Of a DNA stretch of 35,286 nucleotides, positions 21,578-35,104 are shown piece by piece. This DNA comes from an uncultured Thioalkalispiraceae bacterium (GTDB lineage Bacteria > Pseudomonadota > Gammaproteobacteria > UBA6429 > Thiohalophilaceae). Position 1 is the first letter of the stretch. Every line of letters begins with the position of its first letter. The stretch lies in NCBI GenBank assembly GCA_964472525.1, contig CAYYLL010000033.1, positions 1 through 35,286 on the forward strand, in the 5' to 3' direction. The position numbers were made by a program, and so were the translations under genes. Under the pieces are notes generated by a model. That model was not told the origin of the DNA and did no database searches. It was given only the letters and a program-made list of their open reading frames with translations.

Positions 21578-21654
21578 GCCCCGGTAGCTCAGTTGGATAG
21601 AGCAGCCGCCTCCTAAGCGACAGGTCGGACGTTCGAATCGTCTTCGGGGCACCA
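21578..21654 (+). tRNA. tRNA-Arg (anticodon CCU), 77 nt with encoded CCA
   Basis: Cloverleaf read by eye: acceptor GCCCCGG/TCGGGGC, D-arm GCTC-AGTTGGATA-GAGC, anticodon arm GCCGC-CTCCTAA-GCGAC, T-arm GGACG-TTCGAAT-CGTCT, ACCA. Confidence 0.85.
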
Positions 21655-21656
21655 AC

Positions 21657-22463
21657 TTATTTTTTATCTTTCGCCTTATCCATAAAGCCAAATAAGGATT
21701 TCTTGTTTTTTTGCTCTGCTTCAAGTGCTTTTTGCTTTCGTTCCAACTCCAGCATTTCCATTTTACGGTGTAATGCCTCCCTTCTTACCTTTTGTTGCAG
21801 GCGTTGTCGGTCGTGATTCGATAAATCTAGTTTCATAAAGTTATGCGATTCTCGAATTAAGTATTTACCCATGTCATCAAAAAAATCATCTGTGATCTGC
21901 TCTGCCTGAACCGTTCTCTTTAACAAGCCTAAATCCTGAAAATTATTAAATTTAAGATGAATACATGAATTTTTCATATCACCTTCAATTAATATTGTTA
22001 TTTTTACTTTACTTTCAAGTTTAAACTTGGCAAATGAAATTTCGTGAGAGTCATCCCGATATTGCTGAGAGATGTATTGAAGTTTATGACGCTGCATATA
22101 TTCAATATGCTTTTCAATATTCTTTTTATTATCAACATCAAACTCAATAGAATCTTCATCGGTACAATAAAAAATCAGAATAATTTGTTTCATTTCTTCT
22201 GAGCTGTCTGTTGATATTTTATAACTGTTCTGGAAAAGATCCTTTTTTAGGCCCGATGCAGTTAACGTATAAGGTGCGGTAATCGTCGGTTTTACAAAAT
22301 TGAGATGTTCGACAAGCTCATTTAAATGTGTATAAATAGCGGTCATTGCCGGATGAATTTTTGTTTTATAAACGTCCTGTAACTCCGCTTGTTTGGCAGC
22401 ATCATCGTTTTGAGATTGCTTAAGTGCAGAGCTTTGTTTGCGTAAGTCGTCTAACAAACCCAT
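21657..22463 (-). CDS. hypothetical protein (268 aa) with lysine-rich coiled-coil C-terminus; stop codon 3 bp from tRNA-Arg 3' end
   Basis: ORF; no recognisable domain; convergent with and abutting the tRNA. Confidence 0.5.
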   Translation of the reverse strand: MGLLDDLRKQSSALKQSQNDDAAKQAELQDVYKTKIHPAMTAIYTHLNELVEHLNFVKPTITAPYTLTASGLKKDLFQNSYKISTDSSEEMKQIILIFYCTDEDSIEFDVDNKKNIEKHIEYMQRHKLQYISQQYRDDSHEISFAKFKLESKVKITILIEGDMKNSCIHLKFNNFQDLGLLKRTVQAEQITDDFFDDMGKYLIRESHNFMKLDLSNHDRQRLQQKVRREALHRKMEMLELERKQKALEAEQKNKKSLFGFMDKAKDKK

Positions 22464-22512
22464 AATAATTCATCCAGGATTATTTTTTGATTAAAGGGGT
22501 TAACGGTAAAAA

Positions 22513-23088
22513 TTATAATTTTTGAAGCGAATCTTTCCAGTTTTCGTTACTTGCTTCTTCTTTTAATAGAATTTTCATTCCATTGTTAGGGTTTTCCCAG
22601 CCCGTTTCCCCAATAACAGGTTCCAGTTCAAACCCCCACCAAATACCACTCGCATCTTGCACTATCCAGTTTAATTTACGAGAAACATTAGTAGCCCCTG
22701 ACTTTCCAGATTTATGCTGCTCTATTCTTTCGAGCAAATGTTGCATTTCACCACGGCTAATGGTCGTGGTTGGATCAAGTTCTTCGGTTAACGGTGCAGG
22801 CCTATCGCTAAAATAGGTAAGGGTTAATTTGCCCACCACCACCACATCATTATCCTTCAATATATGTGTTTTAATCGCATTGCCATTCACATAGGTGCCA
22901 TTGGTACTACTGCAATCTTTAATCTCAACAAATTTGCTTAACTGGTGAATTTCAGCGTGATGACTGCTAACGGTTGCATCGTCTAAACGAATATCATTAT
23001 CCGCATTTCGACCAATTTTTAAAACTTCGTGCGAAACATACATTTCGTCTAATTTATTATTGTTGTCTCGAATAGTTAGCTTATACAT
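22513..23088 (-). CDS. FHA-domain protein (191 aa) with uncharacterised C-terminal domain
   Basis: N-terminal FHA signature: LKIGRNADNDIRLDDATVSSHHAEI...STNGTYVNGNAI...DNDVVVVG. Confidence 0.65.
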   Translation of the reverse strand: MYKLTIRDNNNKLDEMYVSHEVLKIGRNADNDIRLDDATVSSHHAEIHQLSKFVEIKDCSSTNGTYVNGNAIKTHILKDNDVVVVGKLTLTYFSDRPAPLTEELDPTTTISRGEMQHLLERIEQHKSGKSGATNVSRKLNWIVQDASGIWWGFELEPVIGETGWENPNNGMKILLKEEASNENWKDSLQKL

Positions 23089-23419
23089 TGGGTCTATTTA
23101 TGATTGTAAATTTATCCTTGAGTATAACAGCTATTCTCTAAAGGAAAAGTGAAAATGCTACTGTAAGTAAATGATTAACTTATATTTATCGATTTTAGCA
23201 AATAAGTCAAACTAAAACATAAGAGTATAAAATCATCTGCTATTATCGAGTATTTATAATGGCCTGATATTTAAACTGATTATCGCCACCAATAAAGACT
23301 ATTTACAAATCACATCATAATAATAGAGTCTTTTGCATAGTATCAAACAACCAAGTACCACTCGACAAAACCTTAAAGTTAAAATTCCGGCATAAAAAAC
23401 CTGTGTTAACGGGTTTAAT

Positions 23420-23894
23420 TACTTAAATGGTGCGCCTAGAGCGATTTAAACACCCGACCGCCTAGTGCGTAGTCGTGCGGTCTAGGTAAATCCTGTCAAC
23501 TTTGTCACAAGTATTTACTCTAATAGACTGAATTTAAAGATTTTTATCATGATTGGATAATTATTGATAATTTCACTCCCCCTCCCCCTACACAACATCA
23601 AATATGGTTTGTCATGACACATATTTGCCATACGGGATTTCTATTACTTCTAGGATTTTGTGGTGGGCTTGAACGCAGGAGGCTCTGAGGTCAAGTGTAG
23701 CATCGCTTCGCTAGTGAAGGTTTTTACACTTTTCTAATTCGAAACAAACTCTATTAGCAGTTTATAATCGTAAATTGTATGTTTTACTGTTCGAGCTGTT
23801 CTAACTCACCTCATGTTTCAGCGTGTGAATATTTTAGCCCTTCCATTTCATCTGGGTCGAGTGGCGTAGCACCTTTGGGACAATTAAATTCCAC
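23420..23894 (-). pseudogene. decayed Fic-family 'mobile mystery protein B' remnant, read in three frames broken by stops
   Basis: Directly after mystery-protein-A stop: frame 1 ...KGATPLDPDEMEGLKYSHAET*, then shifted GELEQLEQ*, then NIQFTIINC*. No intact Fic HPFx(D/E)GNGR motif found downstream. Confidence 0.4.
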
Positions 23895-24359
23895 TTACTT
23901 TTCTTCCCATAAATCTCGTGGCATATCTCTAATCAAACGTTCCGTTTCAAACTCGATTTGCCGTTGTAACTGTTCGCTTGATAACTGCTGCGCTTCTAAT
24001 TTCATTTGTACATCTGTCTTATTCACCAGATTTTCCGCTTTTTGCTTTGCTCTATCACGAATCATACTGTCAACCGATTTTCTGGGCACCAGAGCGTAAA
24101 CTAGCTCGCAATCAAGCGCTTTAGCAACACGCCGTAGCTGCTTGAGTGTAATACGATCTTCCATTTCCATACGTTCCATTTGAGAAGCCTGTGACTTACT
24201 CACACCCAAGCGCGTAGCCAATTGAGGGCTACTCATCCCCAATGCTGTACGCAAAGTACGGATCCAACCCTCTTTCGGTGATTTTATTCTTTTAATATCA
24301 ATAAGTTGGTCAATTTTAGACCGATACTGATCTCTAATAATCTGCTTAATCATAATCAA
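23895..24359 (-). CDS. HTH (XRE-family) 'mobile mystery protein A'-type regulator
   Basis: HTH RTLRTALGMSSPQLATRLGVSKSQASQMER, size and architecture of the A partner of A/B (HTH/Fic) mobile modules. Confidence 0.6.
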   Translation of the reverse strand: MIMIKQIIRDQYRSKIDQLIDIKRIKSPKEGWIRTLRTALGMSSPQLATRLGVSKSQASQMERMEMEDRITLKQLRRVAKALDCELVYALVPRKSVDSMIRDRAKQKAENLVNKTDVQMKLEAQQLSSEQLQRQIEFETERLIRDMPRDLWEEK

Positions 24360-24425
24360 TTACCACATATATATGGCCAAGTAATCTATACACTACCATA
24401 TATATATAGCCTAAAATAATATAAT

Positions 24426-24446
24426 AGGCAATATTTATATTGCCTT
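24426..24446. promoter_or_regulatory. perfect palindrome AGGCAATAT-T-ATATTGCCT (9-bp arms) in promoter region of the HTH gene; candidate operator
   Basis: Seen directly; plus second inverted repeat ATATATATGG...CCATATATAT at 24366-24408 and hairpin GCCCAAGT-N7-ACTTGGGC at 24476-24498. Confidence 0.35.
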
Positions 24447-24575
24447 TATTTAAGGCTATTGTTAGTTTCCCTATGCCCAAGTACAGTGCACTTGGGCTTA
24501 TCAGACATATAAATTCTACCAATTACACGTATTTCAGCTTACCCTCCTTTAAATAGTATTTTTAGCTAAAATAGT

Positions 24576-24746
24576 ATGAGCATGATTAAACAACAAAATT
24601 TTGCTAAACATGATGCAGAAAAACAGCCCTTACGTGAACGTGATATTGCGGCTATAAAAAATGGTGCATCTGCAAAAGAAATGCGTAATCGTAACTTTAT
24701 GTTCTCAGGTTTAGACATGTCAAAAGTGGTTGCTATCGCTCCCTAA
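24576..24746 (+). CDS. small hypothetical ORF (57 aa, MSMIKQQNFAKHDAEKQPL...)
   Basis: Below ORF-table cutoff; weak SD; no similarity recognised. Confidence 0.2.
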   Translation: MSMIKQQNFAKHDAEKQPLRERDIAAIKNGASAKEMRNRNFMFSGLDMSKVVAIAP

Positions 24747-24791
24747 TGGGCATCGCTTCTCACATCCCAAATAAATCTCCATTTTCAATTA

Positions 24792-25177
24792 AGATCAATA
24801 ATGCTTATTCATCTTCTTATTGGATTGATGAACACGTTTGATAGCTTCTGCCCATAATGGACTACACAAAGGTCTAAATTTAGCTCGACTACTATCACTC
24901 CATTTAATTTCCATTACCTCGATAATTAAGGCATCTGGATATTTTTTCCAGTCCTCGCGTTTGCTATTTTTTATTTCAACATCAATCTCATTCCATTCCA
25001 GATGCGCACTCTTCTCTATAGAATTTAGTTTTCGGCGAAAAGTACGATTAACCCTTCACTTTCTTTTGCGCTATGCTTTACGTGAGCTTTTATCATTTTC
25101 TCCATACACATTTTTACGCTGATGGGTGTAATCTCTAATCTTATTTTCTTGTGGTGTTATTACTCTTTCCTGATTCA
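24792..25177 (-). pseudogene. frameshifted gene relic; ATG start (25175-25177) then three consecutive reading frames each closed by a stop
   Basis: Frames read MNQERVITPQENKIRDYTHQRKNVYGENDKSSRKA* / ...HSAKESEGLIVLFAEN* / ...LEWNEIDVEIKNSKREDWKKYPDALIIEVMEIKWSDSSRAKFRPLCSPLWAEAIKRVHQSNKKMNKHY*. Confidence 0.25.
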
Positions 25178-25189
25178 TAATTTTTCTAC

Positions 25190-25229
25190 TCGAAAACTTA
25201 AAAATAAAGCGGGGTAAAACTACCCCGCT
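25190..25229 (-). terminator. rho-independent terminator (9-bp GC-rich stem AGCGGGGTA/TACCCCGCT, loop AAAC, then T-run on minus strand) downstream of the mini-RtcB gene
   Basis: Seen directly. Confidence 0.6.
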
Positions 25230-25252
25230 CTATACGCACAATTAAGTCACGA

Positions 25253-25621
25253 TTACCCTCTAACACAAACAACACCTTCAGTTTGTGCCACCATATCATC
25301 AACACTAAAATGACGTTTTGCTTTGCCACGCCTCATTTTACGTCCAGCACCGTGTGAGCAAGAACAAAATGATTCCTTGTTCCCTTTTCCTTGCACAATA
25401 AAAGACTTGGCACCCATACTTCCTGGAATAATACCAATCTCATCAACACCAGCACGAATCGCCCCTTTACCAAAATACACATCTGGCATTGCCGCCACAT
25501 GGCTATAAATAATCGGCAATTGAGATATATTCAACAATTGTTGATACGCTTCATGCTCAATATCATCGGTATAGATTTTTACTGGCACTTTACCTTTTGT
25601 TATCTGTTTTAAAATTAGCAT
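25253..25621 (-). CDS. mini-RtcB: RtcB RNA-ligase derivative (122 aa) with two in-frame internal deletions; probably non-catalytic relic
   Basis: N-term KGKVPVKIYTDD...LPIIYSHVAAMPDVYFGKG matches RtcB N-terminus; then jumps to GIIPGSMGAKSFIVQGKGNKESFCSCSHGAGRKMRRGKAKRHFSVDD (GMP-histidine motif) and ends VVCVRG like RtcB C-terminus; the metal-binding core is missing. Confidence 0.7.
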   Translation of the reverse strand: MLILKQITKGKVPVKIYTDDIEHEAYQQLLNISQLPIIYSHVAAMPDVYFGKGAIRAGVDEIGIIPGSMGAKSFIVQGKGNKESFCSCSHGAGRKMRRGKAKRHFSVDDMVAQTEGVVCVRG

Positions 25622-25677
25622 AACACTACCCTACCTACTCTCTATAATAGTCATGACGATTAGTATCATCATGTTTT

Positions 25678-25860
25678 TTAGTTGCGAGGCAACAATTCTT
25701 GAAATCTACGGCCAGAGCCACAAACACAAGGATCGTTACGTCCCAACTTCTCTGTTAACTCTTTATTATTGTGAACAATCCGTTTACCATGTTTCACATT
25801 CGTTTCTGAGGGGTAACCATGACGACGTTTACTCATAATCTCAAAAGCAGACTTCCTCAT
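25678..25860 (-). CDS. small SEC-C-like Cys-motif protein (60 aa; ...[21 protein letters not shown])
   Basis: C-terminal NDPCxCGSG motif resembling SEC-C metal-binding motif; a strong SD+GTG (25895-25897) opens a different frame 35 nt upstream, so possible frameshift. Confidence 0.4.
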
Positions 25861-25918
25861 AAATCTCGTAATCAGAAGTTTCTTTTCTAGTCTTGTGTTT
25901 CACAATACACCTCCTACA

Positions 25919-26872
25919 TTAAATTACTAAATTAAACCATTGAGGATCTGGTATTTTCTTATACAAACGGCAAAAGCCTTTATCTGACTGTAAAAATTCA
26001 GGTGCCTCAGATGTTTTCTTAAAACAAAAACGCTTTGGCAATTTTTCATAAAGCGATACAGGTGGTTTGGTATATGAAATACGCTTCACATTCGCACCTG
26101 TTTTCGAACTATGATAATGAATATTCGTAATACCTATTTCATTACGAATAAAATCTATCGTTGCTGCAAGCATCGCTTCAGACCAGATCGCTTTATACGG
26201 ACTCATAACATACTTACAGTAATGAATAACATCATCAATACTGCCATCTACACTCCACCATCTAACATGATTTGACTTCTTCTTTTTAGCTCGTTCAGCA
26301 TCACGTAATAAATCAGTACCTTCTCTTACCCAATCACTTTGTATTTCTTCAATTAATGCTTCATTGGTATCAAAGTCGATATCAATCCTTGACCAAGCCA
26401 AAGTTTCTCTAAAATATTCATTACTTTTTTGTTCATAAACCGGATGACAACTAGGATTAAGTAATTGTTCATATCCAGGCTTCACTAATTTTTTATAAAA
26501 AGCATCGTGTTTATTTGAGAAATTCAGTTGCAAAACAAGGTTAAAACCTTTTCTGGAAGTTTGCCCCCACGATGTATCTTTATAATCCCATTTTGATACG
26601 GTTAGAACAAAATCATGAATTTCACTTGGCCATATGTAATCGATAAAGTCCTTAGATACTTTCCCACCTCTGAATTTATCCAAATTCTCTTTGACAAAAG
26701 GTTTTTCCAACAAACCAGAAAATATTGATTTCTTAATATCAGAAATACGGTTTAGATCTTTATCTGTCATATATCCTAATAACATTAAAGCGTATCGGTC
26801 TTTAAAGTAACGAAATACCGTACGTTCTTTAGGCATGCAGTCTATAATTTCATTAACTAATTGTAGTTCCAC
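25919..26872 (-). CDS. hypothetical protein (317 aa), no recognisable domain
   Basis: ORF only. Confidence 0.5.
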   Translation of the reverse strand: MELQLVNEIIDCMPKERTVFRYFKDRYALMLLGYMTDKDLNRISDIKKSIFSGLLEKPFVKENLDKFRGGKVSKDFIDYIWPSEIHDFVLTVSKWDYKDTSWGQTSRKGFNLVLQLNFSNKHDAFYKKLVKPGYEQLLNPSCHPVYEQKSNEYFRETLAWSRIDIDFDTNEALIEEIQSDWVREGTDLLRDAERAKKKKSNHVRWWSVDGSIDDVIHYCKYVMSPYKAIWSEAMLAATIDFIRNEIGITNIHYHSSKTGANVKRISYTKPPVSLYEKLPKRFCFKKTSEAPEFLQSDKGFCRLYKKIPDPQWFNLVI

Positions 26873-26999
26873 TTCACACCTCCAATATTGAGTACCTTAA
26901 TAAACGATACCGGGTACCACACCCAACACCAAAATAATACTGATGTTGAATATGATACATAGCATCACCTCCCCGTACATATTCCAGCACTTTATGTAC

Positions 27000-28148
27000 T
27001 TATTCATGTAAATTGATTCTTACAGTATCTTTTACAATACCGTCTAAACCGCCGAACACAGTAAGCTTGTCTACTTTCTCTGTTATTTTTTCAAGAATTT
27101 CCAGTTCTTTCAAACGCATTAGCGTTGGGTTGTCGTCCATTAAACGCGCAGTGTTCAATAAAGAACGTGTTGCTGCTGTTTCTTCACGACGTTTGATAAC
27201 ATTTGCCTGTGCAATTTTTTCAGCCTCAACCACCTGGTTAAGGATGTCTTTCATATCACCAGGTAAAATGACATCTTTTACACCCACGCCACGTACCTTA
27301 ATACCAAACTCAGAAACCTTATCTTTAACTGTTTCAAAGATTACTTTGTCCAGTTCATCTTTATTCCCTAATAAAGTATCTAAAGTACGTGTACCAACGG
27401 CTTGACGTAATGCAAACTGTAATTCACGATAAACATAATCAGTAACATTCACTAACTTGTTACGCACAGCAATCGGATCAGTGACCTGATACTGAGCAGA
27501 CAAGTTCACACGCAGGCTAACTTTATCCTTAGTCAAAATTTCTTGACCTTGAACTTCCATCACTTGCATACGTAACTCAACTTGTTCCACTTTTACATTA
27601 CGGTTGAACTTCCAGTAAGCGTACAAACCAGGTTTTAATTTTTGCACAAGCTCACCATCAACAATCAGCAAACCAATATGGTTATCGGCCACTTCACTAA
27701 TTGTTAGGTAGTTAACAACTTCACGTGGCATTGCATCCATACGTGCATGTGCGATTAACCCAACAACGGCTTTTGGCACCATAAAGTCTTGTTCAATGTT
27801 TAGTGTTTCTACTTTTACATCAATCAAACCTTTCCAATACAACTGACGTGTAGCAGGTAGCAATACACCATTGAGTTTTCCATTCTTGTAAATCAGGCCC
27901 ACTTCATACTCACCCAACTCAATAAGCTGGAAGTATTTATCAACCAGTTCACGATTTTCTTTTACAAGAACATCGTTATAAGGATGATTAAACTCTGGTA
28001 CTGTCAAGTTATGAACCTCAACCGCTACACGACCAAATAGATCGAATCCACGGTAGATACCCGGTTCAAGAATCTTGACGACAGAACGATCTTTTAAATA
28101 AACACCACGTTCATGTTGTGCGATCACAATACGTTTTAATCCGAACAT
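27000..28148 (-). CDS. SPFH/band-7 (stomatin/HflC-like) domain protein without N-terminal transmembrane anchor
   Basis: C-terminal SPFH-like helical region (KDVILPGDMKDILNQVVEAEKIAQANVIKRREETAATRSLLNTARLM...LMRLKELEILEKI); start set at second ATG (MFGLKR...) which has GGAGAAGG SD. Confidence 0.55.
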   Translation of the reverse strand: MFGLKRIVIAQHERGVYLKDRSVVKILEPGIYRGFDLFGRVAVEVHNLTVPEFNHPYNDVLVKENRELVDKYFQLIELGEYEVGLIYKNGKLNGVLLPATRQLYWKGLIDVKVETLNIEQDFMVPKAVVGLIAHARMDAMPREVVNYLTISEVADNHIGLLIVDGELVQKLKPGLYAYWKFNRNVKVEQVELRMQVMEVQGQEILTKDKVSLRVNLSAQYQVTDPIAVRNKLVNVTDYVYRELQFALRQAVGTRTLDTLLGNKDELDKVIFETVKDKVSEFGIKVRGVGVKDVILPGDMKDILNQVVEAEKIAQANVIKRREETAATRSLLNTARLMDDNPTLMRLKELEILEKITEKVDKLTVFGGLDGIVKDTVRINLHE

Positions 28149-28503
28149 CACACCTTCTCCTTTCATTTAATTAAATATGAGAAATGCTCCACATCCAAAT
28201 TGCGGGACCATACTTGGTACCATCGTGTGTATTAAGCTGCTCCCAAGCTTGCTACGAATCTCACCCATAACACTAAAACGTTATTTATGAGATTCGCTCT
28301 CACTTGTTCGTAACTTAAACAGACCACAGTACATGTTGTATGTCGCAAGCAATCTTTATGCTGTGACATCGAATACACACTACAAAAATCGTTTGTGCAT
28401 TCAACTCACGGGAACATTTCCCGTTGCGATGAGTTACCCCATCAAATAAGCGGATTCGAACCGCAGGCTTTCGCCTTTTCCAAGAACAGCGTTAAAGGCT
28501 GTG

Positions 28504-28577
28504 TGCAAAAGAGAGGGAATTGAACCCTCGACAAATAGATTATCAGTCTATCGCTCTACCCAACTGAGCTATCTTCG
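28504..28577 (-). tRNA. tRNA-Ile(GAU)-like gene or pseudogene, no encoded CCA, bulged acceptor stem
   Basis: Minus strand: D-arm GCTC-AGTTGGGTA-GAGC, anticodon arm ATAGA-CTGATAA-TCTAT, T-arm GAGGG-TTCAATT-CCCTC are perfect; acceptor GCGAAGA/TCTTTTGC needs one bulge. Confidence 0.45.
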
Positions 28578-28726
28578 CTGGTGTTATTGAGTATTTAGTT
28601 GTTTTGTATACACCTTGCTATTTAAGCTTGAGTGCACAGGTCAGAGCTTAGAATCTGAACCGTTAAACAATTAAACGTATCTCAAAAACCTCTGAACGAC
28701 ATGTTTTAAACACATCATTACAATTC

Positions 28727-28759
28727 ATTTAAAAAGGTGGTGAGCGTTATGCCCACCAC
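28727..28759 (-). terminator. rho-independent terminator after HNH gene (GTGGTG-N11-CACCAC then CTTTTTA on minus strand)
   Basis: Seen directly. Confidence 0.5.
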
Positions 28760-28774
28760 AACATATGCAACATC

Positions 28775-29347
28775 TTATTGCGATATTGCATGACGGCGTT
28801 CTTTAGGGCATTGCACTTTCAAGAACGCCATTTGATCCGTCAATATGTGACGGTTATATAAAATTAACCACTCTGCATGGTTAGGTGCATAAGGCACCGC
28901 ATGTAAGTGCATTGTTGATTCACTCAACAATTTATCCGCTTTACGCTGATTACACACACGGCAAGCCGTTACCACATTTGTCCATACATCTTTCCCACCA
29001 CGTGATACAGGAATTACATGGTCACGTGTTAAATGGCGATCAACTAACATCGTTAAACAATACATACACGTATGTTGATCACGTCTAAACAATGCACGGT
29101 TAGTCAGCGATGAAACTTTTCCGCATGGTGCACGGCCAACTTCACCTTTTGCTGCCACGATAGAATGCACATCCATATAGGAACGTGTATTGCTCACACG
29201 GTTAATTCCACCGTAATAGCGCAATGGTTTATCACCTAATGTCCAGGCAACTTGATCTTTAGCATAAAGCAGTACCGCTTCTTGCCAATTAATCCATCCC
29301 ATTGGTTGCCCGCTGATATTGGTTCTTAAAATCAATGCGCTCATCAT
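28775..29347 (-). CDS. HNH endonuclease (zinc-finger HNH, homing-endonuclease-like)
   Basis: CxxC...DHVIPVSRGGKDVWTNVVTACRVCNQRK HNH/CxxC signature. Confidence 0.75.
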   Translation of the reverse strand: MMSALILRTNISGQPMGWINWQEAVLLYAKDQVAWTLGDKPLRYYGGINRVSNTRSYMDVHSIVAAKGEVGRAPCGKVSSLTNRALFRRDQHTCMYCLTMLVDRHLTRDHVIPVSRGGKDVWTNVVTACRVCNQRKADKLLSESTMHLHAVPYAPNHAEWLILYNRHILTDQMAFLKVQCPKERRHAISQ

Positions 29348-29401
29348 CTTATCTCCTACATTTCATCCATATTGCTTTAACAATTTGAAAGTATTTATAT
29401 T

Positions 29402-29465
29402 TGGTGCGCCCGGTCAGATGACCCAACAATAAGTTTAGTGCGTTTGCCAATTACGCCACGAGCGC
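29402..29465 (-). other. 64-nt tRNA-like relic (acceptor GCGCTCG/CGGGCGC + ACCA, D-arm GCGT-N9-ACGC, short hairpin GGTCA-TCT-TGACC; no proper anticodon arm)
   Basis: Seen directly; too short for a full cloverleaf. Confidence 0.3.
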
Positions 29466-29507
29466 TTTATTTACTATTTTCACTTACAACCAATTATCTT
29501 TTGAAAT

Positions 29508-29581
29508 TGGCTGAGGATCATGGATTTGAACCAGGACTACGAGTGTCAAAGACTCGCGTGCTACCATTACACTAATCCCCA
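29508..29581 (-). tRNA. tRNA-Gln (anticodon UUG), 74 nt, encoded GCCA end
   Basis: Acceptor TGGGGAT/ATCCTCA, D-arm GTGT-AATGGTA-GCAC, anticodon arm CGAGT-CTTTGAC-ACTCG, T-arm CCTGG-TTCAAAT-CCATG (one C.U mismatch), discriminator G. Confidence 0.65.
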
Positions 29582-29737
29582 ATATTTTATTGGTACGCCC
29601 CCGGTCGCAACGCACTTCCCTGTTCTCTCGCGACATTCGTATGTCCTATACATCAGATTCGAACTCAGAAAACACTGCGGCCATTATTTAGCCAGCACCA
29701 GCGACGTATGCCAGTTCCGTCATAGGCGCATAAAAAT

Positions 29738-29836
29738 TGGAGCACCTGTGAGGCCGTTTTTGTATGTTTAAATACATTGGCAACCTCAATCTTTCACCTT
29801 CGTAGGGTGATGCTCTTGCATTTAAGCTACAGGCAC
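29738..29836 (-). tRNA. tRNA-Arg(ACG)-like, 99 nt, with a 30-nt insertion (own hairpin) in the T-loop; probable pseudo- or aberrant tRNA
   Basis: Acceptor GTGCCTG/CAGGTGC + T + CCA, D-arm GCT-N10-AGC, anticodon arm TCACC-CTACGAA-GGTGA (perfect), T-stem TGAGG...CCTCA enclosing TTGCCAATGTATTTAAACATACAAAAACGG. Confidence 0.45.
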
Positions 29837-29845
29837 ATTATTAAT

Positions 29846-29920
29846 TGGTCGGTCGCAAGAGACTCTAACTCTTACCTTCTGGATTAAAAGTCCAGTGTGC
29901 TTTCATTACACCAGCGGCCG
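29846..29920 (-). tRNA. tRNA-Lys (anticodon UUU), 75 nt, atypical core (no G18G19, T-loop TTAGAGT lacks C56, one C.A acceptor mismatch)
   Basis: Acceptor CGGCCGC/GCGACCG, D-arm GTGT-AATGAAA-GCAC, anticodon arm CTGGA-CTTTTAA-TCCAG, T-arm AAGAG-TTAGAGT-CTCTT, A + CCA. Confidence 0.6.
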
Positions 29921-29984
29921 GAATTATTTTCTTAATACGTTTTAACTTAATGACAGCAATAAATTGTTTCTTTGATAGCTTCAT
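29865..29984 (-). CDS. 39-codon ORF (MKLSKKQFIAVIKLKRIKKIIPAAGVMKAHWTFNPEGKS) with strong SD GAGGAGGG; 3' half is co-linear with tRNA-Lys
   Basis: SD 5 nt upstream of ATG; ORF may be fortuitous or a relic. Confidence 0.2.
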   Translation of the reverse strand: MKLSKKQFIAVIKLKRIKKIIPAAGVMKAHWTFNPEGKS

Positions 29985-30015
29985 TTAATCCCTCCTCTGT
30001 TTAATAAACATTAAT

Positions 30016-30183
30016 TTAGGCATGCGGTCGAATTAAATGTAATAAATCATCTAGTTTTGGATTATTACGATTCTCGATCCATGCATTTGCAAGTAACCAA
30101 CGTAAATTAGCTTGCGTTGGAACTGTTCTGTTCTCTGGCACATTGACTTGTTGAATGAGTCGTCTGTACTTGTTAATTTCAAT
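30016..30183 (-). CDS. 55-aa ORF in TTG frame (LEINKYRRLIQQVNVPENRTVPTQANLRWLLANAWIENRNNPKLDDLLHLIRPHA) preceded by SD AAGAGGAG and a 6-codon ATG mini-ORF (MNNIGN*) in the -1 frame; probably frameshifted small gene
   Basis: Seen directly; strong SD belongs to the ATG at 30191-30193, whose frame stops after 6 codons. Confidence 0.2.
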   Translation of the reverse strand: MEINKYRRLIQQVNVPENRTVPTQANLRWLLANAWIENRNNPKLDDLLHLIRPHA

Positions 30184-30212
30184 ATTGTTCATAACGAACT
30201 CCTCTTTAGTTT

Positions 30213-30289
30213 GGGGCGATCAAACGGGTTCGAACCGATATCCACATAATTCACAGTTATGGACTTTACCTATTAAGCTATAATCGCCA
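30213..30289 (-). tRNA. tRNA-His (anticodon GUG) with G-1 and discriminator C73, encoded CCA
   Basis: G(-1)+acceptor GCGATTA/TGATCGC, D-arm GCTT-AATAGGTA-AAGT, anticodon arm CATAA-CTGTGAA-TTATG (perfect), T-arm ATCGG-TTCGAAC-CCGTT (1 mismatch), C-CCA; G-1:C73 is the His identity hallmark. Confidence 0.75.
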
Positions 30290-30407
30290 TTATTAAAAAA
30301 TTGGTCTGGATGTCTGGCTGCTCATGTGCATCCATGCACCCGCAGCATTTGTACATCCCTGTACATCATTTAAACTTGCGATATCTCCGTTCACTTTAAT
30401 ATAGTAC

Positions 30408-30443
30408 TGGCGGAGAACTCTAATCAGACTGAGCTATACCCAG
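30408..30443 (-). other. tRNA 5'-half fragment (acceptor + D-arm: CTGGGTATAGCTCAGTCTGATTAGAGTTC) followed by long hairpin; no matching 3' half
   Basis: GCTCAGT D-arm motif; no T-arm or acceptor complement downstream; adjacent palindromes TGTACA-GGGA-TGTACA and GTGCAT-GG-ATGCAC. Confidence 0.3.
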
Positions 30444-30466
30444 ATAAATCGAATACAATGGTGTTA

Positions 30467-30631
30467 TTAAATAGCACTCATTAATGCCATTAAAGAACAC
30501 CACTCTTTCTTCAATTTTTGCTTCTCAATTCTTCGTTTTGCTTTATCCGACTTTTCATGCACACCACCTTTAAACATCAATGGATGATTATGAAAAGGAT
30601 TTCGTGGTTTACTATCTTTTAATTTACTCAT
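30467..30631 (-). CDS. small basic protein (54 aa, MSKLKDSKPRNPFHNHPLMFKGGVHEKSDKAKRRIEKQKLKKEWCSLMALMSAI)
   Basis: Internal ATG of the 102-aa table ORF with SD GGAGAAAAG; longer version would overlap tRNA-Asn. Confidence 0.4.
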   Translation of the reverse strand: MSKLKDSKPRNPFHNHPLMFKGGVHEKSDKAKRRIEKQKLKKEWCSLMALMSAI

Positions 30632-30651
30632 CGCTTTTCTCCTATATAAAT

Positions 30652-30726
30652 TGGCTCCTAGAGTCAGACTCGAACTGACATACAACTCCTTAACAGGGAG
30701 CCCACCTACCAATAGTGCATCTAGGA
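30652..30726 (-). tRNA. tRNA-Asn (anticodon GUU), 75 nt, encoded CCA
   Basis: Acceptor TCCTAGA/TCTAGGA (perfect), D-arm CACT-ATTGGTA-GGTG, anticodon arm GCTCC-CTGTTAA-GGAGT, T-arm GTCAG-TTCGAGT-CTGAC (perfect), G + CCA. Confidence 0.8.
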
Positions 30727-30854
30727 ATAATATGTAAGTTGTTATACGAATCGGCTTCCCACAACCGATACCCATAAGGTTTCCCCCGAAGGTTTTGCTT
30801 TACTTACCTTAATGTTGCGTAGGTAGTTACGCGAATAAACAACAAAACAGGCTC

Positions 30855-31013
30855 AAAACCCAACCAAGTGCTACCACACTTTCGTATAACAACTTGCACA
30901 CAATTACATATTTCTAAACAACACTTGGGTTTACATAAGTGCCAGTAAAATGAAAAACTGGCACTAAAAAACCCAACCAAGTGTTACCACACTTTCGTAT
31001 AACAACTTGCACA
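30855..31013. repeat. two direct copies (30855-30900 and 30967-31013, one mismatch) of a ~47-bp element AAAACCCAACCAAGTG(C/T)TACCACACTTTCGTATAACAACTTGCACA; partial inverted copy at 30736-30750 next to tRNA-Asn
   Basis: Seen directly; each copy followed about 40-90 bp later by hairpin AGTGCCAGT-N10/11-ACTGGCACT (30938-30965 and 31106-31134). Confidence 0.6.
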
Positions 31014-31076
31014 TCTATTTATGCTCATTCGTTTTCTTACAAATCCATTTATTACATACATGCCTTTTTCAAAGAC

Positions 31077-31102
31077 GAAACCGAATAAACCTATTCGGTT
31101 TC
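31077..31102. repeat. perfect 11-bp-arm hairpin GAAACCGAATA-AACC-TATTCGGTTTC
   Basis: Seen directly. Confidence 0.5.
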
Positions 31103-31140
31103 ATAAGTGCCAGTAAGATAAAAAAACTGGCACTAAAAAA

Positions 31141-31176
31141 CCCCGTTAGTTATTCACCTAACGGGGTTCTTGTTTA
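31141..31176. terminator. bidirectional rho-independent terminator (CCCCGTTAG-N8-CTAACGGGG flanked by A-run upstream and TTCTTGTTT downstream); a second 9-bp GC stem follows at 31182-31212
   Basis: Seen directly; T-tracts on both strands. Confidence 0.55.
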
Positions 31177-31230
31177 GTTCCCGCGAAAGGCATGTTATGT
31201 CAGCCTTTCGCGATAGTGATTTGCAAAAAG

Positions 31231-31413
31231 CTATGTCATACCGAGGGTGTCCTGGTATGAGTTTGTATGTTCATTTGTTGTCAAAGATGTTTTTTGTTCA
31301 GTAGACACAATTGCTCGCATCAATTTCAGTGAGGCACACGGATCTATATCCCCTGCCACCAATAAATTGGGTCGAATATTTAAAGTTAAAATTGTGTTTC
31401 CAAATAAATTCAT
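31231..31413 (-). CDS. small hypothetical protein (60 aa, MNLFGNTILTLNIRPNLLVAGDIDPCASLK...) divergent from the HTH-XRE gene
   Basis: Start moved to internal ATG with strong SD GGAGGT (5 nt spacing); upstream extension lacks SD. Confidence 0.45.
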   Translation of the reverse strand: MNLFGNTILTLNIRPNLLVAGDIDPCASLKLMRAIVSTEQKTSLTTNEHTNSYQDTLGMT

Positions 31414-31542
31414 GTTTACCTCCAAATGAATAGCGCAATTATAGTTATGAATTTCAAGAATGCAAGCTTTATTTTCAAGTTTCTTGTACAATATTTTATA
31501 GCATTACACACACTTATATTGAGTTTAAATTTAGGATTAAAA

Positions 31543-32139
31543 ATGGCAGACAAAAAAAATCCAACTGCAATACAAATTGGCCAACGTATTAAGCAAGCAC
31601 GAAAGATGGCAGGGTTTAATACCGCCGCACAATTGCTAGATAAGATTAAAGATTGGGGAACTGGGCGATTAGGGAATTACGAAGCAGGTATATCACTTCC
31701 CTCCCCCGATGATGTAAAGATAATATCAAAGGTAACAGGCTCATCACCCTGCTGGATAATGTTTGGTTTAGGCCCAATCCGTTCTACAGGCAGAGATTTA
31801 CAAGCAATACGACACCAAAATTTCATTTATATATTTGATAGCTGTAAAACAAAGAAAGGATCTATTACTAAATTCTTAAATGCTATTGGATTATCCAGAA
31901 AAAAAATTGAAGAACATATCAACAACCCTTTCCTAACAATTCCTGATCGTACAGCACATAAATGTGAAAAATTTTACAAGAAACCTGTTAACTGGTTAGA
32001 TGAACAACATGTAGAATCCGATCCTATCTGCGCTGCCTTCCCTGAAGATATGCGCCATGTTATGGAAATTTACTCTTGCTTAACAAAAGAACAACGAATA
32101 ATGTTTCTAAAAATGGCTGATGTCATTAGCTCATCGTAA
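31543..32139 (+). CDS. HTH-XRE family DNA-binding protein (phage-repressor-like N-terminal HTH, unknown C-terminal domain)
   Basis: HTH IQIGQRIKQARKMAGFNTAAQLLDKI; start set at MADKKNP (AGGA upstream) rather than the 39-aa hydrophobic extension. Confidence 0.6.
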   Translation: MADKKNPTAIQIGQRIKQARKMAGFNTAAQLLDKIKDWGTGRLGNYEAGISLPSPDDVKIISKVTGSSPCWIMFGLGPIRSTGRDLQAIRHQNFIYIFDSCKTKKGSITKFLNAIGLSRKKIEEHINNPFLTIPDRTAHKCEKFYKKPVNWLDEQHVESDPICAAFPEDMRHVMEIYSCLTKEQRIMFLKMADVISSS

Positions 32140-32245
32140 AAAATGATGTCAAAGTATGTTCTATAGCTAAATAACTGTATATAGAAACGCAGCATATTGT
32201 CACACTATAAAATAGCCAATAAATACTTCAAACTATTACTCATTA

Positions 32246-32980
32246 TCATACACGTGTAAGTGACTTAAATATTTCAGCATCCCAAGGACGCATTGCAAGC
32301 ATAAAACCTACAGAGTGACGTTTATCTAACGGCAACTTAACATCATGTCTTAACAGTTCTGTAAATTCCTTAGCAAGTATTTGCATCTTACTCATTAATT
32401 GCTGCAACGATGCATCACTTAATAAACCATACAAAAATAATCGCTGCTCCATATCACCATTAAATCGTGATTTTAAAAAATGACCTTGCAACTGAGATGC
32501 AAAAAATCGTTCAATCGGTCCATCTGACAACCAGCGAAAATCTTCAGAGATACGTAGCTTAATCCGATTGTTCGGTAATAAATCAATAATTTTCAGTCTA
32601 TCCAACTGTGCGAGAGATTGAATGCATTCAGCTTCGGTAAGATGATACTGAGACAAGATATCCGAAAAACTGAAATGGTTACGTACGCTCACAGCGACTA
32701 ATAACAACTTAACATCAGCCACAAGCTTCTCTTCTTGCTCATAGGTTAGCTGGGTTATATGCTGCCGTGAGTCTTCATAAAGCTGGAACAAATCAGATAG
32801 CTCCATTTGCATTATCTGGCAGATATCCTCCAGCCGTTCCAGGGTGAAACGTTTCGATGCAAACTGACGCTTTACATTAGCCTCACTCATACCCAGCGCT
32901 TCACCCACATCAGCGTAAGTTAGATTATAAGTCTTTAGCGCCTGTTTTAAAGTTGCTATAAGTGCTGCTGTCTGCGCCAT
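32246..32980 (-). CDS. XRE-family transcriptional regulator (N-terminal HTH + uncharacterised C-terminal domain), divergent from the pspA-like operon
   Basis: HTH LTYADVGEALGMSEANVKRQFASKRFTLERLEDICQIMQMELSDLF. Confidence 0.6.
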   Translation of the reverse strand: MAQTAALIATLKQALKTYNLTYADVGEALGMSEANVKRQFASKRFTLERLEDICQIMQMELSDLFQLYEDSRQHITQLTYEQEEKLVADVKLLLVAVSVRNHFSFSDILSQYHLTEAECIQSLAQLDRLKIIDLLPNNRIKLRISEDFRWLSDGPIERFFASQLQGHFLKSRFNGDMEQRLFLYGLLSDASLQQLMSKMQILAKEFTELLRHDVKLPLDKRHSVGFMLAMRPWDAEIFKSLTRV

Positions 32981-33113
32981 AGAAGCTCTCCAATGCCTTA
33001 AAGTATCGTATTTATATACCTATATACCACTTATTGTCACCTTTTTCCACTGGAGTTTATTTATTTGCTTCTATGTCCCACACTTCTAAAACAAACTACA
33101 AGAGGGAACCACC

Positions 33114-33770
33114 ATGTCAATATTCAAACGTCTTAGCACCACTATCGCCGCTCAACTTGACCACGTCGTCGGAGAAATCGAAAACCACGATGCTATTGTT
33201 AAAGCCAGCATCTCTGATTTAAAGAAGAAAATCGTAGAAGCTAAAGTACGACTCGACCATGTACGTAATGAAGTAAACCGACTACAAAACCAAGTTTCCC
33301 AACATCAAACCGATGCCAAACGTTGGCAGTCACGTGCAATCGAGTGTGCACATACAGACGAGCAAAAAGCTCTGTCTTGTGTAAGCCGGGCACATCAATG
33401 CGAACAACAAATATCTCAACTCGAATCAGCCGTTAACCAATATCAACAATCAGCTAAAAAGCTAGATCAAGATATTAATGCCGCAGAAAACCGTGCACGA
33501 GAGCTTAAACAAAAACATGATTTAATGCGTGCACGTCAGTCCAGTTGCGCAACACTAAAAGTTACTCAGGACACAAGTGAAGATTCAACATCCATGCTAT
33601 GTGATACCTTTGACCGCTGGGATATTAAGTTGCGTCAAACCGAATTGTCAATCGACGCACAACCTCATATCGATTCACTTGAACAAGAGTTTGTTCAACA
33701 AGAGCAAGAAGATGAATTACGTCATGCCTTGGATGACTTATTAAAAAATAATCAGGAGGAAATAAAATGA
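33114..33770 (+). CDS. PspA/IM30 (phage-shock protein A / Vipp1) family protein
   Basis: N-terminus MSIFKRLSTTIAAQLD... parallels PspA [20 protein letters not shown]; all-helical coiled-coil 218 aa. Confidence 0.65.
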   Translation: MSIFKRLSTTIAAQLDHVVGEIENHDAIVKASISDLKKKIVEAKVRLDHVRNEVNRLQNQVSQHQTDAKRWQSRAIECAHTDEQKALSCVSRAHQCEQQISQLESAVNQYQQSAKKLDQDINAAENRARELKQKHDLMRARQSSCATLKVTQDTSEDSTSMLCDTFDRWDIKLRQTELSIDAQPHIDSLEQEFVQQEQEDELRHALDDLLKNNQEEIK

Positions 33771-35104
33771 ATCATTACAGTGAACAACCCGCATTCGATG
33801 ATTCCAATCATTCAATCACATCCACTGATTTTGCATGGATGAAAAAATTACCAGACTTATTGCGCATTCTAGGAACCGGTGCATTATTAATCGCGATGTA
33901 CAGTTTTTTAATCAAAGGTTGGGATAATGGCAATGATACATTTCGTTATCTATTAATGCTTGGTCACACTGGATTACTTGCCGCAATTGGGCTAGCCAGT
34001 GGCCATTGGTTAAAGGAAAGTAAAGGAGCCAGATTACTGCTAACACTCGCATTAGTCTCGGTCCCCGCAAACTTCGCTATTTTAGGTGCTTTTATTTTCT
34101 CACAAGCCAGCGGAGTTGATTTAAGCCAATATCCTAACTATATCGCCTGGTCTGTCGACAGTATGCAAACAGCTTTACTAACGAGTGGTGGCGCATTATT
34201 TATTTTATTTCCTGTCACCTTATTAGGTTTTACTGTCTTAGCACGCAGCATGTCTAAACGTTTAACCCTATTATTTTTGCTCAGTAATGCTGTACTGCTC
34301 TTACCAGTTCGCGATCCCGTAATGGTGGGTTTAATGGTATTAGCATTAACCATTATGACAATCATCTTGGCACACAAATCATCACAACAGCACATTGCCG
34401 CAAAGACACAAGAAGGAATTACAGCATTAGGTTTGCAAGCCCTTCCCTTAGCTATCTTAATGGGTCGCACCCTGTGGTTGTATTCTGCTGATATGCTCCT
34501 ATTAACGGTAATGACAATAACCACCTATATTGTCCTGCGCCAAGCATCTATGTTCTTCAATAATGAATCGCGTTTAAAGAAAATTCTAGATGCCCTATCA
34601 TTAATCCCTGCCATCATTACGGCACCATTTTTAGCCACAACGTTAACTGATGCTAATTGGCCAATTGATGCATTAATATTACCAATCGCTACGATTGCTT
34701 CAGCTATCATGATTTATGACATTGCACAACGTAATGATAAAAGTGCGACGACTTATCGCTGGATAGCAGCATTAATGGTGGTAACAGGCATGGGGATTAA
34801 CATGCTATTCCATTCAGGTGTAATTGCTGCAATAAGTTGCATTACAGCAGGTGTTGGATTGTTAGCCCTTGGGTATATGAACAAACAGCGCAGTTTCTTC
34901 ATTAATGGTTTCATTTTAATAATGATTGGTATAGCTCAACAGTTATATGAACTAGTACACAACTTTAACTTAGGTAGCTGGGCAAGTATGGCTGTAATGG
35001 GCGTAATCACTATTGTCGTTGCTTCTATTATTGAAGCTAAAGGTAATTACTTATATCAGCACTTCTCAAACTGGAAAAATAGCTTTAAACAGTGGGAAGG
35101 TTAA
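33767..35104 (+). CDS. polytopic inner-membrane protein (445 aa, about 12 hydrophobic segments), translationally coupled to the PspA-like gene (ATGA overlap)
   Basis: Hydrophobic helices throughout; start overlaps upstream stop. Confidence 0.6.
   Translation: MNHYSEQPAFDDSNHSITSTDFAWMKKLPDLLRILGTGALLIAMYSFLIKGWDNGNDTFRYLLMLGHTGLLAAIGLASGHWLKESKGARLLLTLALVSVPANFAILGAFIFSQASGVDLSQYPNYIAWSVDSMQTALLTSGGALFILFPVTLLGFTVLARSMSKRLTLLFLLSNAVLLLPVRDPVMVGLMVLALTIMTIILAHKSSQQHIAAKTQEGITALGLQALPLAILMGRTLWLYSADMLLLTVMTITTYIVLRQASMFFNNESRLKKILDALSLIPAIITAPFLATTLTDANWPIDALILPIATIASAIMIYDIAQRNDKSATTYRWIAALMVVTGMGINMLFHSGVIAAISCITAGVGLLALGYMNKQRSFFINGFILIMIGIAQQLYELVHNFNLGSWASMAVMGVITIVVASIIEAKGNYLYQHFSNWKNSFKQWEG

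Follow-up and report, generated by a model that had tools for sequence, protein, structure and literature searches.

Why does a stretch of bacterial chromosome carry the remains of an RNA ligase gene beside a row of tRNA genes, several of which are broken? The question is raised by contig CAYYLL010000033.1 (assembly GCA_964472525.1) of an uncultured Thioalkalispiraceae bacterium, a gammaproteobacterium; positions 1 to 35,286 of its forward strand, the whole stretch analyzed, are called the window here. A first-pass annotation had proposed that 25253-30726 is a mobile module, now partly decayed, which once supplied replacement tRNAs together with the repair ligase RtcB as a counter to anticodon nucleases. 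The answer that we regard as probable is that 25204-32139 is a chromosomal, laterally moved operon for RNA damage or translational stress. It would combine a tRNA array of the kind called an "L-array", ending in an HNH endonuclease gene, with an RtcB cassette (a tRNA-like RNA, a Band-7 protein, a 317-aa protein, a SEC-C protein, and RtcB), both read leftward from one control region, and it would be decaying in this genome. That the window holds a new anti-nuclease tRNA set is not established.

In intact relatives, such an operon may work as follows, the logic of induction and the repair role being taken from the literature, and the layout, synteny, decay and leader covariation being shown by the sequence comparisons below. 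Stress would relieve repression or termination at a leader in the control region. The array would then provide extra tRNAs, and RtcB would reseal tRNA or rRNA that has been broken to leave 2',3'-cyclic-phosphate and 5'-OH ends. The Band-7 protein and the tRNA-like RNA could serve as a scaffold or cofactor.

The module and its intact relatives

The window is bacterial chromosome with a GC content of about 38%. The minus strand between 25204 and 31242 carries the rtcB relic, the SEC-C, 317-aa, SPFH/Band-7 and HNH genes, two conserved micro-open reading frames (micro-ORFs), five scoring tRNAs, and four tRNA pseudogenes. The HNH gene (28775-29347; Pfam HNH_5, E = 3e-16) stands at the 3' end of the array. 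Downstream of it on the same strand are the slipin-like SPFH/Band-7 gene (27000-28166; Pfam Band_7, E = 7e-26), whose likely start at 28148 gives 382 aa, the 317-aa gene (25919-26872), a gene for a small protein with the SEC-C motif (25678-25860; Pfam SEC-C), and the rtcB relic (25253-25621), about 1.4 kb downstream of the Band-7 gene. An intrinsic terminator found by a terminator scan (25204-25233, minus strand) marks the end of the operon.

Relatives were surveyed by scanning one genome per species with an alignment of the 317-aa family, which gave 80 loci, and then by tblastn and ARAGORN. In relatives the family member is termed the 316-aa gene, and in 48 of the 80 loci rtcB shares its strand and is no more than 500 nt away. 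A Band-7 gene is present in 13 and an HNH gene in 8 of the 80, and at least four array tRNAs are found in six species loci, among them L017 and L019 (20 tRNAs each), L080 (19), and L069 (28); L numbers are our handles for related loci and contigs. In L017 and L019, tRNA-Asn and, farther on, the gene for micro-protein s54 are followed by tRNAs for Asp, Ile, Pro and His, by the gene for a second micro-protein, s58, by tRNAs for Val, Arg, Arg, Lys, Arg, Leu, Gln, Trp, Met and Leu, and finally by the HNH, tRNA-like, Band-7, 316-aa, SEC-C and RtcB genes, the last encoding 398 aa. Other contigs have the order HNH, a tRNA, Band-7, 317-aa gene, and full 398-aa RtcB (L009 to L011) or tRNA-Gln, HNH, 316-aa gene, and RtcB (L014, L015). 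The SEC-C gene lies between the 316-aa gene and rtcB in L009, L014, L019 and L098.

Close relatives, L098 to L100, are 84-90% identical in DNA sequence to positions 25201-32129 of the window. L098 carries tRNAs Asn, His, Lys, Leu(UAG), Gln and Leu(UAA), the HNH, tRNA-like, Band-7, 317-aa and SEC-C genes, and an intact rtcB for 398 aa. Thus, the tRNA array and RtcB are a real linked unit, as the first-pass annotation had supposed: the same order with a full 398-aa RtcB recurs in L017, L019, L009 and L098. The proposal that the module is mobile also agrees with these loci. In L098 it occupies a site other than that of the window, adjoining tRNA-Arg(ACG), tRNA-Ser and csrA, and such differing chromosomal sites in close relatives fit mobility.

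L-arrays have been reported in many phyla, including all classes of Proteobacteria, with lateral transfer, some pseudogenes, and a conserved HNH gene (PMC8421152). The window has the array-type HNH linkage and the lateral spread with patchy distribution, given the L098 module, about 85% identical at another site, and the mere 6 of 80 loci with at least four tRNAs. It lacks the great length of about 20 or more tRNAs, having four decoding tRNAs, one tRNA-like gene and four remnants. Since the syntenic arrays of L017, L019, L080 and L069 do have that length, the window copy is a reduced derivative. The window HNH protein shares 40% identity across 95% of its length with the HNH protein that closes a 27-tRNA array on a plasmid of Methylibium PM1; further matches come from Nostoc, Tolypothrix, Acaryochloris and Mycobacterium plasmids.

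Decay of the tRNA array and of rtcB

The tRNAs were called with ARAGORN plus the Rfam tRNA model, for which the threshold is 29 bits. Both methods accept five tRNAs on the minus strand, at 55-63 bits, and the observation made in the first-pass annotation holds. Four of them have decoding anticodons. In the direction of transcription these are tRNA-Asn(GUU) (30652-30726; 55 bits; encoded CCA; 86% identical to the tRNA-Asn of L017), tRNA-His(GUG) (30212-30288, or 30212-30287 as called by ARAGORN and Rfam, with G-1 at 30288 and C73), tRNA-Lys(UUU) (29846-29920), and tRNA-Gln(UUG) (29508-29581), the last also matched by array tRNAs of relatives. The fifth is the tRNA-like gene, considered below.

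When array tRNAs of relatives were matched to the window, four remnants were found on the same strand, in the expected order. A pseudo-tRNA-Pro(UGG) (30409-30443) retains only the 5' 35 nt, is 83% identical to positions 1-35 of the L017 tRNA-Pro, and is a remnant in L098 as well. A pseudo-tRNA-Arg (29781-29836), 87.5% identical to positions 1-56 of the L017 tRNA-Arg(GCG), is truncated at its 3' end and lacks the T arm. In a pseudo-tRNA-Leu(UAG) (29653-29729) the anticodon region is replaced and the 3' acceptor strand is lost, and a pseudo-tRNA-Leu(UAA) (29402-29465) has an internal deletion of 22 nt; both Leu genes are intact in L098. The earlier count of at least six tRNA or tRNA-like genes beside an RtcB derivative took in one remnant: five genes score and Pfam recognizes the RtcB fragment, but the supposed tRNA-Arg(ACG) is a remnant, its span of 29763-29836 reaching only 22.3 bits in Rfam, below threshold. 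The anticodon list drawn up at that time included this remnant, whose anticodon is ACG in the window and GCG in L098, and left out the Ile-type gene.

Comparison with L098 separates two phases of loss. Before the two lineages split, an array of about 20 tRNAs had been reduced to six, about 13 tRNAs having been lost in this earlier phase, and the Pro and Arg remnants had already formed. Since the split, the window lineage has lost both tRNA-Leu genes, has acquired the changes G19>A and C56>A in tRNA-Lys, and has suffered two deletions in rtcB. With its rtcB deletions and its tRNA remnants, the module is partly decayed, just as had been suspected at first.

Some peculiarities of the surviving tRNAs are older. 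The array tRNA-Asn has a D stem of 3 bp with a G-G opposition, which is kept in L017, L019, L069 and L080, and the T50-T64 mismatch of tRNA-His is kept in its orthologues. Because these oddities persist across distant arrays, they are lineage traits rather than decay. A T-stem mismatch in tRNA-Gln and a C4-A69 mismatch in tRNA-Lys are common to L098. The only two substitutions that distinguish the window tRNA-Lys from that of L098 affect both partners of the G19:C56 elbow pair, which become A19 and A56; possible reasons are coincidence, decay that followed a first change, and selection against the elbow contact.

Could the Asn, His, Lys and Gln tRNAs have survived because they are targets of anticodon nucleases, serving as replacements or decoys, with deviations that help them to escape? 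We consider this rather unlikely. It is true that all four intact decoding tRNAs are for NAN codons, those with A at the second position (P = 0.004 in a hypergeometric test relative to the 19-tRNA array of L017, or P = 0.03 for a broader target class that takes in 9 of the 19 tRNAs), but both the NAN and the target class were picked after the data had been seen. NAN decoders make up 9 of 15 tRNAs in the six reduced arrays, compared with 25 of 83 tRNAs in the full ones (binomial P = 0.016, nominal and post hoc), and Lys is retained in four of the six. Against this, the ancestor common with L098 also had two tRNA-Leu genes, and intact arrays hold 18-28 tRNAs for nearly all amino acids, which indicates that nuclease targets were not what the array was assembled from. 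The earlier statement that the anticodons are exactly those of nuclease targets is thus weak: the survivors favour it as NAN decoders by a nominal, post hoc test, but the full arrays do not, and the Arg copy is dead.

The notion of escape fares similarly. The deviations of tRNA-Lys are real, and both of its window-specific changes fall on the G19:C56 tertiary pair. However, the phage route of escape, as described in the accessible text of PMC10264068, is a change in the anticodon loop, and the anticodon loops of the Lys, Gln, His and Asn tRNAs are the same as those of their array orthologues, the host isoacceptors lying outside the window. The deviations lie instead in the elbow, T stem and acceptor stem, and those of tRNA-Lys and tRNA-Gln are mostly common to L098, where the operon is intact. 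Compensation for codon usage was also considered as a reason for retention and was rejected: AAU, AAA and CAA are frequent codons, but CAU and CAC are rare, and the decoders of the equally frequent GAU, GAA, AUU and UUA have been lost.

The loss of the ligase was mapped against L009 and L098. The rtcB relic encodes 122 aa (Pfam RtcB, E = 1.3e-26) corresponding to the N-terminus and to profile positions of about 299-380 out of 426; what survives is the first 58 residues, the HGAGR segment, and the six residues at the C-terminus. The first deletion removed 711 nt (237 codons) between two copies of GTAAAGG(G/T)GC, which specify the motifs GKGA and RKGA, and the alignment blocks against L009 and L098 overlap by exactly those 10 nt at the junction. 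The second removed about 120 nt (about 40 codons) at a microhomology of AGG, and since ...QTEG is thereby joined to VVCVRG-stop, the original stop codon and terminator were kept. Both deletions are in frame. In addition, the MPDVH motif has become MPDVY. A catalytically complete RtcB, present in L009, L014, L017, L019 and L098, is absent from the window; the deleted central part presumably holds most of the metal and GTP ligands. As judged from the sequence, the window ligase is dead, its gene killed by two microhomology-mediated, in-frame deletions. The ratio of nonsynonymous to synonymous divergence (Ka/Ks) relative to L098 is 0.03-0.18 across the module genes (0.40 for s54) and 0.14 for the relic. 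Because the relic falls within this range, the deletions are probably recent, and the other genes are still constrained.

Alternatively, the 122-aa product might be a functional short protein, a regulator or a dominant-negative partner, rather than the product of a pseudogene. The two in-frame deletions, the retained start, stop and terminator, and the Ka/Ks of 0.14 would accord with this. So would the short RtcBs with the same MPDVHxG|KGAIRA junction on two phage-like contigs and a short RtcB family of 139 positions in PHROGs. Yet in the intact gene the junction falls within a 10-nt direct repeat, so that the sequence by itself predicts recurrent in-frame deletion. The 122-aa form is alone in its cluster and was seen in this lineage only, the conserved MPDVH motif carries the H>Y change, and the central two-thirds of the enzyme are gone. 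We therefore judge a functional mini-RtcB to be very improbable. The two short forms on phage-like contigs, P0003 (L003:2198-2692, 164 aa) and P0004 (L001:5363-5923, 186 aa), are open reading frames with the junction of the window relic; L003 also has UvsY, a gp19-like gene and four tRNAs, and L001 has PhoH and ClpP. They likely arose by recurrent deletion at the conserved KGA repeat, although phages may perhaps have kept a short form. A conserved mini-RtcB family was likewise rejected, since this recurrence explains the short forms that do exist.

That the segment is a leftover tRNA region of a T4-, T5- or jumbo-phage-like prophage is barely credible: HNH relatives (about 50% identity over the HNH core) do occur inside the phage tRNA arrays L007, with 36 tRNAs, and L008, the tRNA-Lys region is about 76% identical to KVP40-like Vibrio phages, and internally deleted RtcBs are found on phage-like contigs, but Pfam and PHROG scans of the neighbours found no phage structural, replication or integrase genes in the window, collections of phage and plasmid DNA gave only short matches to RtcB, slipin and tRNA, IMG/VR contains no relative of the 317-aa family, and many species-level genomes and metagenome-assembled genomes carry the entire module on the chromosome. 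The IMG/VR search used the 317-aa protein and its family alignment and returned no homologue; the Band-7 protein, the regulator and the leader were not searched there. With this result and the chromosomal flanks, the likening of the HNH gene and micro-ORFs to T5- or T4-like phage regions, made in the first-pass annotation, finds no support. One of the phage arrays, L007:3983-14877 on a 160-kb IMG/VR contig, packs 34 tRNA genes plus a transfer-messenger RNA (tmRNA) gene into about 11 kb, with the HNH relative embedded.

The tRNA-like RNA and related systems

The gene that predictors call tRNA-Ile(GAU) (28503-28578, minus strand; 63 bits in Rfam) has no encoded CCA and a bulged acceptor stem. 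In 13 related loci a similar gene precedes the Band-7 gene by 260-500 nt. This family has a common D arm and T arm and an acceptor stem that is imperfect or bulged as judged by eye. Its anticodon varies by locus (GAU, AAU, CAU, UGU, CAA, UAG, and some odd loops), that of L098 being AAU. A role as a decoding tRNA is unlikely. A 2018 preprint (bioRxiv 10.1101/312249) credits Burroughs and Aravind (2016) with a system of RtcB, a Band-7 protein and a Band-7-associated tRNA-like RNA. By its sequence and position, the window "tRNA-Ile" would fit the "band 7-associated tRNA" reported next to RtcB. The Band-7 protein itself is 87-94% identical to those of L009, L017 and L098, and the members of its protein cluster are 382 aa long.

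Several elements of the module have thus been met before, in various combinations. An rtcB gene lies near L-arrays and is co-induced with them under translational stress (PMC8421152). In Anabaena, the TrcR regulon comprises the trn array, the HNH gene all8564, rtcB, and alr0739-alr0740, which encode a hypothetical protein and a slipin (PMC10272220). RtcB and Rnl ligases accompany the tRNAs of jumbo phages (PMC7824862), and the SPFH protein PaFlo8 is encoded inside the rtc locus of Pseudomonas (PMC13086221). Given the earlier reports on L-arrays, TrcR and Band-7, the combination is already known. The belief that it had not been described as a unit has to be abandoned: RtcB, Band-7 and tRNA-like RNA were joined in 2016, as the 2018 preprint relates, and arrays with HNH and rtcB in 2021 and 2023. 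The window copy is a reduced gammaproteobacterial member in which all components stand in one operon.

With the RtcB/Band-7/tRNA-like system, as the preprint summarizes it, the window shares a tRNA-like gene ahead of Band-7, an rtcB linked on the same strand, and a tRNA-like RNA of conserved body and variable anticodon. It differs in that its RtcB is internally deleted and in that it adds a multi-tRNA array, the HNH gene, a GNAT-like protein (316 aa), SEC-C, two micro-proteins, a helix-turn-helix (HTH) regulator, and a structured leader. With L-arrays and the Anabaena trn set it shares supernumerary tRNA genes that encode CCA and include some pseudogenes, an attached HNH gene, lateral spread, and the grouping of rtcB, HNH and slipin into one functional set. 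However, the Anabaena genes are scattered and co-regulated by the ribbon-helix-helix (RHH) repressor TrcR through 9-nt repeats, whereas the window has one operon, an XRE-type HTH regulator, and a leader containing a terminator; unlike L-arrays, its array is down to four decoding tRNAs. The rtcBA operons with RtcR of E. coli, Salmonella and P. aeruginosa are likewise centred on repair by RtcB, and the Pseudomonas locus also has an SPFH protein. These operons include RtcA and the sigma-54 activator RtcR, neither of which is found among the window ORFs of 21657-35104, and the regulator and leader of the window are of another type. Phage tRNA regions (T4 with SegB; jumbo phages, PMC7824862) resemble the module in having tRNA clusters with small ORFs, an HNH-type nuclease and sometimes RtcB, but the module of the window is cellular.

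Here, then, the inference from cyanobacterial co-regulation that arrays, HNH, slipin and RtcB cooperate meets a physical operon, which offers a compact test system. Together with its intact sister, the window copy provides a time series of loss, in which repeat-mediated deletions took the ligase first while the tRNAs are dying singly. The leader RNA, the regulator and the unnamed partner of RtcB are handles on how RtcB is induced and on what supernumerary tRNAs are for.

Some points weigh against the reading of the module as a decaying stress operon. The gammaproteobacterial module is known here from its sequence alone, and its membership in the Band-7-associated tRNA system rests on a secondary citation, the preprint, and on our own comparison. 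The relic's Ka/Ks relative to L098 does not itself show relaxed selection and does no more than fit recent deletions. Finally, the remaining genes of the operon are intact and purifying selection acts on them, so that a ligase encoded elsewhere in the genome may keep it working. A scan with PADLOC for known defence systems gave only generic HNH and HTH matches.

The control region and neighbouring genes

Upstream of the array, on the plus strand, is a divergent gene (31543-32139; mechanical ORF start at 31426) for an XRE/DicA-like HTH regulator of 198 aa (Pfam HTH_3). Homologues that are 47-74% identical are found in 12 related loci, always divergent from and upstream of the module, and the members of the cluster are 198 aa long. 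A conserved divergent regulator of this kind is possibly new.

Between the regulator and tRNA-Asn, the minus strand specifies a conserved leader RNA of about 115 nt (31129-31242; alignment A4) with the segments S1, S2 and S3 and an intrinsic terminator (31139-31168) found by the terminator scan. S2 (GCGRAAGGC) pairs with S3 (GCCTTYCGC). Taken together, the S2:S3 and terminator stems reach 96.5% pairing; in each of these two helices three pairs, six in all, have changed on both sides, and none of 500 shuffles reached the covariation score. S2 can alternatively pair with S1 (AGCYTTTCG); this helix is 88% paired, again with six pairs changed on both sides and none of 500 shuffles reaching the score. 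G-U pairs in S1:S2 favour an RNA over a DNA motif. A third pairing, of S3 with the 5' arm of the terminator as an antiterminator, is possible in 87.5% of the cells of the alignment and was set aside, having no covariation support; a sigma-54 promoter over the terminator was dropped after inspection by eye.

A covariance model of the leader, seeded with 13 loci, scores 100.5 bits in the window. It places the leader on the module strand both in the window itself and at 27 related loci, among them 15 that were not in the seed. In array-less loci the leader directly precedes rtcB, for example in Hahella ganghwensis (L082), one of the weakest matches with a score of 32.5 bits. A search of the leader against Rfam returned no credible family at E values up to 10, and a leader RNA of rtcB operons is possibly new. 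Within the 5' end of the window leader there is a possible mini-ORF, ATG-ACA-TAG (31239-31231, minus strand), which is itself overlapped by a palindrome, TCATACC...GGTATGA (31260-31236, minus strand). An ATG-NNN-stop overlaps S1 in closer relatives, and the pattern fails in distant members.

From these alternative pairings we hold, with moderate confidence, that the leader would be an attenuator-like switch. We offer a wider suggestion only tentatively: the rtcB/316-aa operons of Gammaproteobacteria, with or without an array, may share an undescribed cis leader in which S2 pairs with either of two nearly identical segments, S1 or S3, ahead of the terminator. Such an attenuator might sense how translation is proceeding, spare tRNAs and RNA repair being turned on according to whether a ribosome occupies S1, and it might act together with the HTH regulator and the GNAT-like 316-aa partner.

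This partner, the 317-aa protein of the window, belongs to a compact, unnamed family without a Pfam entry, for which a fold search indicates a GNAT-like fold. A word-indexed search gave 915 matches, and at 50% clustering the family has 825 representatives. The motif IDxDF...EEIQSDW had led to the guess of a PD-(D/E)xK nuclease, which was discarded because the fold search points to GNAT instead. The occurrence of a GNAT-like family beside rtcB in 48 of 80 species is possibly new. Compared with L098:4369-5322, the 317-aa gene has 72% amino acid identity and a Ks of 1.07, while its neighbours have 90-94% and a Ks of about 0.3; this suggests that recombination may have replaced the 317-aa gene alone.

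The two micro-ORFs lie within the array on the minus strand. Micro-protein s58 (58 aa, 30016-30192) is 69-83% identical in relatives, with a Ka/Ks of 0.03 relative to L098. Micro-protein s54 (54 aa, basic, 30467-30631), which has tblastn matches in many loci, has no family match in Pfam or NCBIfam. In many rtcB operons that lack an array (L023, L027, L031, L052, L053, L082, L095 and others), a homologue of s54 comes directly after the 316-aa gene. Thus, s54 is not specific to the array, and it looks like a third conserved partner. The ribosome-rescue factor ArfA was considered as its identity and rejected, given the lack of a Pfam or NCBIfam match and of any BLASTP alignment with an ArfA sequence.

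The rest of the window to the left of the module is chromosomal. A flagellar and chemotaxis cluster fills 1-21500 (FliD, two flagellins, FlgK to FlgE, CheR, CheV, FlgA, FlgM, FlgN, and a PilZ protein) and is followed by a plus-strand tRNA-Arg(CCU) called by ARAGORN (21578-21654), after which come the accessory genes, including the module, about 3.5 kb away. An att-type repeat of the 3' end of this tRNA was looked for and none was found, nor was an integrase found in 21657-24359. That interval, between the tRNA and the module, holds genes for a 268-aa protein without a family, an FHA-domain protein, and an XRE-type HTH protein, none of which adjoins the module in the L098 lineage. At the other end, the spacer between the leader terminator and tRNA-Asn (30855-31143, minus strand) is duplicated, with direct repeats D1, D3 and D11, and is single-copy in L098. 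This window-specific tandem duplication contains the motif AAGTTGTTATACGAA three times, twice in direct orientation and once inverted, the inverted copy abutting tRNA-Asn.

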